From positions 279,605-343,604 of the forward strand of contig NZ_RAWO01000002.1 of assembly GCF_003668955.1 (NCBI RefSeq): DNA of 64,000 bases. The letters run 5' to 3'. The stretch's first letter is position 1; each line of letters starts with the position of its first letter. Made by a program: the position numbers and the translations under genes. The notes beneath the pieces are model-generated. The model did not search any database. It was given only the letters and a program-made list of their open reading frames with translations, and had not been told where the DNA came from. This document shows positions 40,098-41,406 of this stretch, piece after piece. The stretch comes from Corallococcus sp. AB038B. GTDB lineage: Bacteria > Myxococcota > Myxococcia > Myxococcales > Myxococcaceae.

Positions 40098-40748
40098 ATG
40101 GGTGATGGAGCGATCAACATTTCGTGTGACTGGCAGCAGACCATCCAGCAGCGCCCCCAGAAGAACATGCCGGTGGGATACCTGCTGGACATCAAGGGGA
40201 TGGGCAAGGACGACGGTGCCTTCCCCAAGAGCAGCAGCCAATTCTACACCCCGTTCGTCGGTGACCCCGCCTACCCCGGCGTGCAGTTGCAGGACGTGGG
40301 CGCGAAGAAGGCCGTGCGCGCGGTGGGCCTCATCACGCAGCTCCAGTGGGAGGGCGGCAAGCTCGACCCCATTGATTTCACGGTGCTGATCTCGCCGGAG
40401 AACAAGGCGGACTTCTCTGGCATCACCAATACGGAGATCCGTCAGCTCAAGTTCTGGGTCTGCGAATGGGACAGCACCGCGGGCAAGTGGTACGAGAAGT
40501 GCTACCCGCTCGGTGACGAGGCCGGTGGCCCCGCCAACGAGATCACCTCCCGCCTGAACCAGAAGGGCAGCGAGGTGATGATTCGCGTGGGGGATCCGGA
40601 GAACGTGGGCGTCACGGACGTCAAGTTCTGCCAGATGTCCTTCCAGCTCATCCCGGACAAGGCGCACCTGTGCAACTTCCACTACGGGCACAACTCGACG
40701 GACAAGGACGTGTTCGCCTGGGGCTACGTCGAAGGCGGCCAGTCGTAA
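40098..40748 (+). CDS. T6SS-associated protein of unknown function, paralog A (candidate divergent Hcp/TssD)
   Basis: Strong RBS ggagga. Occupies the position after tssC usually held by hcp. Shares blocks C.WQ...RP......GYLL...G.G and LK...W......AG.W.E with the convergent neighbour. Confidence 0.4.
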   Translation: MGDGAINISCDWQQTIQQRPQKNMPVGYLLDIKGMGKDDGAFPKSSSQFYTPFVGDPAYPGVQLQDVGAKKAVRAVGLITQLQWEGGKLDPIDFTVLISPENKADFSGITNTEIRQLKFWVCEWDSTAGKWYEKCYPLGDEAGGPANEITSRLNQKGSEVMIRVGDPENVGVTDVKFCQMSFQLIPDKAHLCNFHYGHNSTDKDVFAWGYVEGGQS

Positions 40749-40806
40749 GCGGTTGAGGCAGGACGGGGAGGGCGGGAACAGCGCCTTCCCCGTCGCGCTT
40801 TGGGGG

Positions 40807-41406
40807 CTACTTGTCCGAGCCCCACTTGGTGACGCGGCGCTCCTGGGAGTTGGTGGCGAACTCCAGGGTGGTGCTCTTCTTGGGCGCGGGCACCACCCGG
40901 AACTGGAAGCGGTGGAAGCGGATGTCCAGGTCGTCGGCCAGCGTGGCAGGCTGGTTGTCCAGGAAGACCTTGGGGCGGCCCTTCTCCGTGTCCATCAGCG
41001 CTTCGGCGGTGGCGGGGCTCTTCAGCTTGGCGGCCTCGAACCAGGTGTCACCTGCTTCATCGAAGTCGATGATGGCCCACGCCAGCTTCAGGCGCAGGTT
41101 CTCCAGCGGCTTGGCGAAATGGTTGAGCACGTTCGCGGCCGTGACGCGTCCCACGTACACGCTGAACTCCAGGGGGCCGGAAGCGCCATTCATGGACAGC
41201 CGTTCAATGAGGCCAATGCATTGCGCCGTGGGCCCCAGGTCGCCCACCGTGGGAGAGGCCAGGGAGAGATCCTTCGCCAGGTTCAATCCCCCGCAGCCGT
41301 TCCATTCCAACAGATACCCCAGCGAGCCGCGGAAGCCGGGCCGGTATTGAAACCCGGTCTGCCATTTGCATTCGAGTTCGAGCAAGTCGGGTTTCGCGAT
41401 GGTCAT
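40807..41406 (-). CDS. T6SS-associated protein of unknown function, paralog B (convergent with paralog A)
   Basis: About 25% identity with 40098..40748 across the full length. ATG at 41406; the ORF-track extension is rejected. Confidence 0.4.
   Translation of the reverse strand: MTIAKPDLLELECKWQTGFQYRPGFRGSLGYLLEWNGCGGLNLAKDLSLASPTVGDLGPTAQCIGLIERLSMNGASGPLEFSVYVGRVTAANVLNHFAKPLENLRLKLAWAIIDFDEAGDTWFEAAKLKSPATAEALMDTEKGRPKVFLDNQPATLADDLDIRFHRFQFRVVPAPKKSTTLEFATNSQERRVTKWGSDK

Follow-up and report, generated by a model that had tools for sequence, protein, structure and literature searches.

A conserved pair of predicted IglC/Hcp-fold proteins in a Francisella-related type VI secretion locus of Corallococcus

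The genome of Corallococcus sp. AB038B carries a type VI secretion system (T6SS) locus within the 64,000-nucleotide stretch analysed here (contig NZ_RAWO01000002.1, positions 279,605 to 343,604 of the forward strand), which we refer to as the window and whose own numbering is used throughout. Our focus is on two adjacent open reading frames (ORFs), ORF A and ORF B, the first of which occupies the slot directly after the large sheath gene tssC. On the basis of their predicted structures, their gene context and their retention as a pair in related loci, we consider that A and B are probably anciently duplicated inner-tube (TssD) proteins of the IglC/Hcp fold, serving a T6SS that is related to the T6SSii of Francisella. 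We place the probability of this reading at roughly 0.82.

The gene pair behind tssC

ORF A opens 33 bp past the tssC stop codon, with a Shine-Dalgarno motif (GGAGGA) 8 nt upstream of its start, and ORF B converges on it across a gap of 58 bp (40749-40806). A longer frame for B, opening at a GTG at 41544, is present in the mechanical ORF list; we set the start of B at the ATG at 41406 because every homolog, all of them 199-203 aa in length, begins at that residue. When aligned by BLASTP the two proteins are 22% identical over 209 columns (A residues 6-209 and B residues 9-196, E=5e-13). When 18 orthologs from both types are aligned, an N-terminal C.W block is retained, followed by GYL, G.G, W.E and F...P blocks and a C-terminal W (WG in both window proteins), and the invariant columns include C10, W12, G27-Y28-L29, G34, G36, W131, F182, P186 and W208. 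Neither sequence contains a signal peptide or a transmembrane segment. A preliminary description of this DNA, made before the present analysis, had given the same ORF coordinates and had proposed two full-length paralogs of about 25% identity with shared blocks, facing each other across 58 bp and free of signal peptides, and on each of these counts it is borne out.

The composition of both ORFs is of the coding type, with a G+C content of 0.90 (A) and 0.85 (B) at third codon positions (GC3) and of 0.40 (A) and 0.48 (B) at second positions (GC2). Among Corallococcus species, the ratio of nonsynonymous to synonymous substitution rates (dN/dS) is 0.25-0.52 for A and 0.12-0.44 for B, and 0.11-0.50 for tssC. 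Both are genuine genes on which purifying selection acts. Corallococcus exiguus has a protein to which ORF A is 100% identical; it is annotated 'hypothetical protein', and this is also what named copies are called in the databases that were searched.

The gap between the genes holds a GC-rich hairpin. In eight related loci (L001-L007 and L009) the corresponding gap is also predicted to fold into a stable hairpin, of differing sequence, with fold energies for the gap and its flanks of -33 to -70 kcal/mol, and the element is likely to be a bidirectional terminator. A consensus scan for promoters and terminators between 37.5 and 42 kb returned no sites, and no sigma-70 consensus was seen; the terminator scan passed over the hairpin because it lacks a T-run. 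At its other end, B is separated from the start codon of the iglI-like gene by an AT-rich region of 55 bp which hardly varies among most Corallococcus loci (L001-L005 and L007) and is more diverged in L006. We infer that this region contains divergent promoters, which would give the downstream plus-strand genes a start of their own. A 16-nt inverted repeat, with arms at 41403-41418 (TCATGGAGTGTCTGTC) and 41450-41465 (GAAAGACAGACCATGA), covers the start codons of both B and the iglI-like gene, and could represent an operator or the trace of an inversion.

The surrounding locus and its relatives

The genes around the pair (Table 1) have, to judge from their protein matches, a Francisella-type character which the preliminary description overlooked. 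Three features of T6SSii are found here: an IglE lipoprotein in place of TssJ, an IglI family protein and a sheath closest to IglB. When compared with solved chains, the window TssC scores 424 bits against Francisella IglB (3j9o_B), 358 against VipB and 344 against the T6SSi TssC of Myxococcus xanthus. The same protein is also a strong match for the general VipB models of Pfam. TssK, on the other hand, matches the TssK chains of T6SSi and not IglD; Pfam and NCBIfam scans of the locus proteins matched no Pdp or IglF/G/J models. Given this T6SSi-type TssK and the lack of Pdp and IglF/G/J matches, the sequences indicate a system that is related to T6SSii, or intermediate, rather than a plain member of that type. 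The Francisella-type nature of the locus also makes IglC, and not classical Hcp, the right comparator for A and B.

Table 1. Genes and sequence features of the window discussed in the text
Feature	Position	Strand	Remarks
IglE-like lipoprotein	30590-31105	-	TssJ equivalent of the Francisella system; PF22361 IglE_N 104.9 bits (cutoff 26); NF041245 39 bits, below cutoff of 75
tssM/pdpB-like	31102-34803	-	Membrane-complex subunit; IcmF_helical, IcmF_C; TIGR03348 partial match
Short VgrG-like spike	35768-36346	-	192 aa; DUF2345 26.2 bits (cutoff 30.7) and NF041249 T6SS_TssI_Fran 21.6 bits (cutoff 100), both below cutoff
tssK, T6SSi type	36374-37627	-	TIGR03353 318.7 bits (cutoff 100); PF05936
tssB/iglA-like	37742-38497	+	Small sheath subunit; PF05591 T6SS_VipA E 1.8e-41
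tssC/iglB-like	38548-40065	+	Large sheath subunit; PF05943 E 2.7e-110; PF18945 E 2.5e-34
ORF A	40098-40748	+	216 aa, ATG start; predicted IglC/Hcp-fold protein, A type, slot directly after tssC
GC-rich hairpin	40762-40794		In A/B gap; 13-nt arms, 7-nt loop; inverted repeat, 92% complementary
ORF B	40807-41406	-	199 aa, ATG at 41406; predicted IglC/Hcp-fold paralog, B type, convergent with A
AT-rich divergent region	41407-41461		55 bp between the start codons of B and the iglI-like gene; presumed promoters
IglI-family protein	41462-42433	+	Divergent from B; NF041244 IglI_fam 231.7 bits (cutoff 100), E 1.6e-68
Conserved 314-aa protein	42447-43391	+	Homologs in L001-L010 and L012-L014
tssE-like	43400-43792	+	gp25 baseplate wedge; PF04965 GPW_gp25 34.3 bits (cutoff 27.2)
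Conserved 543-aa protein	43789-45420	+	Conserved in L001-L008, L010 and L011
tssF/iglH-like	45424-47091	+	Baseplate subunit; PF05947 E 4.3e-21; TIGR03359 81 bits, below cutoff
Sheath	55462-57876	+	Second cluster; Phage_sheath_1
gp19-type tube	58464-58955	+	Second cluster; PF06841 E 3.7e-29
CIS_tube protein	59916-60788	+	Second cluster
tail-X-like gene	60799-61077	+	Second cluster
GPD hub	60990-62264	+	Second cluster

The Hcp profile PF05638 matched none of the scanned window ORFs with GC3 support, the low-GC stretch at about 19-24.7 kb being covered only in part, and within that scope the earlier observation that no recognisable Hcp lies elsewhere in the locus stands. The short VgrG-like protein gave no useful match in a sequence search of the PDB, the 314-aa protein matched no Pfam or NCBIfam family, and the 543-aa protein had no match in Pfam, NCBIfam or PDB sequences. 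The gene for the gp25 wedge is hidden in the ORF list within a longer GTG-started ORF (42902-43792), and fills what appears to be a gap between the genes for the 314-aa and 543-aa proteins.

A scan of one genome per species gave 15 related loci, to which look-ups by protein identity added more, and family members were counted with a hidden Markov model of the A/B family run on six-frame ORFs. The window has exactly two members, as does every related locus with tssC in it (13 of 13; L001-L012 and L016). Seven Corallococcus/Myxococcaceae loci (L001-L007) are arranged as in the window, and the pair is convergent too in a metagenome-assembled genome (MAG) of Myxococcaceae (L009). Vitiosangium (L008) and Archangium (L010) have the genes tssC-A'-B'-iglI, in this order, all on a single strand, A' and B' denoting the copies of other genera. 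Three loci (L011, L012 and L016) run tssB-tssC-A'-tssK, followed by B' in opposite orientation. The window differs in having tssK upstream and divergent. A B-type gene near baseplate genes is also found in two MAG loci that end short of tssC (L013, from Kofleriaceae, and L014), and a distant family member less than 20% identical to B (P0167) also sits directly behind tssC. The convergent orientation had previously been regarded as odd and as a break in the operon. It does split the plus-strand genes, but it is not peculiar, as B lies opposite tssBC in most relatives and the B type is co-linear with these genes only in Vitiosangium and Archangium. Because B is opposite the sheath genes in most lineages, separate transcription of it appears to be the norm and not a chance feature of the present genome.

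The B-type proteins group into a single clade in a neighbour-joining tree, and this clade is kept across Myxococcaceae, Archangiaceae and more distant MAGs in every related locus that contains tssC. The copies behind tssC split in this tree into a Corallococcus branch and a branch of other genera. Identity between Corallococcus A and A' of other genera is 24-33%, compared with 61-76% for A' copies among the non-Corallococcus genera, 42-50% for the B type between Corallococcus and other genera, and 76% for TssC between the window and Vitiosangium. Taken together, the identities and the clade structure indicate that the duplication is old, that systems of this kind have the pair as a constant component and that the Corallococcus copy of A has diverged unusually fast.

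Predicted fold and the case for a tube

Structure prediction for B, which used a 128-sequence alignment, gave a model with a predicted local distance difference test score (pLDDT) of 94.6 and a predicted template modelling score (pTM) of 0.90. When this model was searched with Foldseek, IglC was the sole PDB match at E<=0.001 (E 9.8e-6, probability 1.00, template modelling score 0.63). The models of A and B both match Francisella IglC first and canonical Hcps second, and the predicted structure shows the Hcp beta-barrel fold and agrees with the IglC structure (2qwu). IglC (PF11550) is the Hcp/TssD equivalent of the pathogenicity-island T6SSii, and the models of A and B are clearly closer to it than to any Hcp. 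In comparison with canonical Hcp/TssD proteins (PF05638; Hcp1 of enteroaggregative Escherichia coli, 4hkh; the M. xanthus Hcp in 5urw), A and B are longer by some 40-55 residues.

The resemblance to IglC is not detectable in the sequences, and the structure-based identity is 11-13%. A Pfam scan of A and B found no family at E<=0.1, with PF05638 and PF11550 both unmatched; the PF11550 model scores IglC itself at 484 bits, yet A and B score nothing. Profiles for gp19 (PF06841) and CIS_tube (PF19266) gave no match to A or B, and searches of NCBIfam, PHROGs and, with phmmer, the PDB returned nothing meaningful for either protein. As there is no link to Hcp or IglC at the level of sequence, the homology rests on the predicted structure together with the gene context.

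A profile of both types found 561 family members at E<=1e-3 among 1.84 billion cluster representatives, and a word-indexed homolog search with a large alignment added few new proteins. Pfam and NCBIfam scans of 128 members found no family, PF05638 included, and returned only twin-arginine translocation (TAT) signals in three members and unrelated matches in single members. The family is thus large and yet has no Pfam or NCBIfam model. Some of its members are much longer than A and B, namely P0036 (648 aa), P0143 (615 aa) and P0162 (585 aa); P0036 and P0143 match the family profile in three separate stretches, which suggests that they contain tandem IglC-like domains.

The gene order lends further weight to the comparison with Francisella. 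The tssB-tssC-A'-tssK order of L011, L012 and L016 corresponds to the iglA-iglB-iglC-iglD order of Francisella (bioRxiv 2024.11.25.624902), and A sits in the window in the equivalent place. The preliminary description had suggested that the hcp slot might hold a divergent pair of Hcps and had proposed a structural comparison with Hcp folds as a check. At the level of fold the suggestion holds, with IglC as the nearer relative. If A and B do act as tube proteins, their subunits would assemble into hexameric rings, the rings would stack up as a tube within the TssB/TssC sheath, and contraction of the sheath would expel this tube, capped by the short VgrG-like spike. There are clear differences from the Francisella system: two conserved paralogs are found here whilst Francisella is described with a single IglC (PMC5924787), and the host is a free-living predatory myxobacterium and not an intracellular pathogen. 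Paralogs within one machine do have precedents. Phage T4 gp19, gp48 and gp54 are tube-fold paralogs in one machine (PMC5924787, Table 1), and Hcp paralogs of the Bacteroides fragilis T6SSiii have been deposited as PDB 9vnd under the title 'Hcp2-Hcp3 Heterohexamer'. These cases, in which paralogs serve as mixed rings or as tube starters, offer a model for the conserved A/B pair.

A number of observations weigh against a tube role for the pair. The confidence of the A model is only moderate. When the 128-sequence profile was run against the PDB with hmmsearch, no IglC or Hcp chain appeared at E<=10 and the only matches were antibody and nanobody chains at chance level, and alignment of the same profile to IglC with hhalign gave a probability of 0.2. 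Corallococcus A, at 24-33% identity against 76% for tssC, has also changed unusually fast for a bulk subunit of the tube, and its case as the main tube is the weaker for it. In addition, many representatives of the family have Sec or TAT signal peptides (P0040, P0046, P0057, P0074, P0080, P0128, P0132, P0138, P0156 and P0162), and the three of these whose neighbourhoods were read (P0040, P0057 and P0138, in loci L020 and L022-L024) sit among unrelated genes outside T6SS loci. Given these exported members, membership of the family does not by itself imply a role in a tube, and for A and B it is the gene context that carries the argument.

How the two copies would share the work is a finer question. 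A, which has the iglC position and is presumably co-transcribed with the sheath genes, is for these reasons our slight preference as the bulk tube subunit. B, which would be transcribed alone from the opposite strand, would then form a second and specialised ring that may share a mixed tube with A, start the tube on the short spike or carry a cargo protein. The reverse assignment, in which B is the main tube subunit and A a fast-evolving accessory such as a cargo-specific Hcp-like carrier, is a serious contender at somewhat under even odds: it would account for the better conservation of B and the rapid divergence of Corallococcus A, and is opposed by the same position and co-transcription that favour A.

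A protein of similar size to B is known from Francisella, namely PdpE. We take pdpE to adjoin iglD (tssK) and to be convergent with it, as the B type is in L011, L012 and L016, although the papers cited here give gene numbers only. We offer this as a positional lead and not as a claim of homology. The T6SS secretes PdpE, a protein of about 21.6 kDa which binds PdpC, an effector, and which is dispensable for firing; its gene is FTN_1320, next in number to the iglD-iglA operon (FTN_1321-1324) (bioRxiv 2024.11.25.624902). PdpE is restricted to terrestrial Francisella (bioRxiv 2024.11.25.624902), whereas all the related loci studied here have the B type.

It is also conceivable, though we think it unlikely, that one copy, most probably B, is not a tube subunit but a tube-fold adaptor between the threefold spike and the sixfold tube. 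Such an adaptor would replace the gp27-like module that is missing from the 192-aa VgrG, in the manner of T4 gp48/gp54 and of the role proposed for Francisella PdpA. The shortness of the VgrG is in keeping with this idea, as is the finding that no PdpA-like protein was recognised in Pfam, NCBIfam and PDB searches of the locus. The top structural matches, however, are full-length tube proteins and not adaptors, and the 543-aa and 314-aa proteins could supply an adaptor instead.

The remaining alternatives can be set aside with some confidence. B interrupts the plus-strand gene order, and the single IglC described for Francisella might encourage the view that it is a functionless, redundant duplicate left by a local inversion. 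This is very improbable and we reject it: the dN/dS of B is similar to that of tssC and indicates purifying selection, its clade is retained across families in every related locus with tssC as well as in L013 and L014, and both its upstream region and the hairpin downstream of it are conserved. Effector-immunity pairs are two unrelated proteins, a toxin and its neutraliser, and are typically strain-variable. That A and B might be such a pair, or other cargo merely housed in the locus, had been raised in the preliminary description and has some appeal, as small genes of unknown family beside T6SS core genes often are such pairs and B, being convergent, stands outside the operon; it is the least probable of all the explanations and is rejected, since the paralogs A and B share a structural fold and have neither signal peptides nor transmembrane segments, no toxin or enzyme domain was found in Pfam, NCBIfam and PHROGs scans, and all 13 tssC-containing loci, across genera and families, keep both within the core gene set, one of them in the iglC slot.

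Neighbouring genes and wider meaning

A separate contractile-injection cluster, phage-tail-like or of the extracellular contractile injection system (eCIS) kind, lies on the plus strand at 55462-62264, within 10 kb of the T6SS and with its own gp19 tube some 12 kb downstream, and had been overlooked in the preliminary description. Its gp19 tube gene was considered as the missing Hcp and rejected, being part of a separate sheath/tube/hub cluster. At the edge of the T6SS locus, on the minus strand, is a gene for an AMP-binding (adenylate-forming) enzyme (47479-49161). The enzyme recurs in the distant T6SS locus L016 (4283-5914), between an IglE-like gene and a DUF4280 (PAAR-like) gene, and may belong to such systems as a conserved accessory. 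Beside it, also on the minus strand, a 346-aa protein (49158-50198) has a weak match to TraB, an outer-membrane-exchange protein of myxobacteria (NF033763, 23.7 bits, far below cutoff). On the other flank, the IglE-like gene is abutted by a minus-strand gene (24722-30580) for a 1952-aa protein with HYDIN/ASH/DUF1573 Ig-like repeats. The stretch from 20 to 24 kb has a GC content of 0.58-0.62, compared with about 0.70, and contains ORFs of 693 aa, 327 aa (with no Pfam match) and 588 aa; the region 20000-30580, made up of this low-GC stretch and the HYDIN-repeat gene, may be horizontally acquired cargo.

T6SSii, and IglC with it, has been stated to be exclusive to Francisella in papers up to 2026 (PMC4793230, PMC12955703, bioRxiv 2024.11.25.624902), and our literature search found no paper on IglC-like proteins outside Francisella or on such a T6SS in Corallococcus. 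The fold and the proposed role of A and B are those of Hcp and IglC; the sequence family, the obligate pair of paralogs and the intermediate system type are without description in the searched literature. One practical consequence concerns annotation. With neither Pfam nor NCBIfam offering a model of the A/B family, loci of this kind will be reported as lacking Hcp by annotation pipelines and by T6SS finders, a fault that a family-based profile would remedy.

A broader scenario, which we put forward tentatively and regard as doubtful at present, is that Myxococcota and other environmental bacteria harbour a T6SS lineage between T6SSi and T6SSii whose tube is built from an obligate pair of IglC-fold proteins. 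On this view the IglC of Francisella, and perhaps PdpE, would represent a reduced remnant of this arrangement, and the same family would have been recruited elsewhere as exported Sec/TAT proteins. If this is the case, then the obligate pair would form either a mixed tube or a bulk subunit with a separately regulated starter or carrier ring, and the exported members would be unrelated to the tubes of secretion systems.

The two-paralog design adds a further case to the emerging machines with multiple Hcps, and poses a simple and testable question, namely which of the copies is the tube. More generally, the locus shows that free-living predatory myxobacteria have predicted IglC-fold tube proteins alongside an IglB-like sheath and members of the IglE and IglI families. 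The isolated Francisella system would thereby gain environmental relatives, and with them a route by which its odd parts may be studied in non-pathogens.

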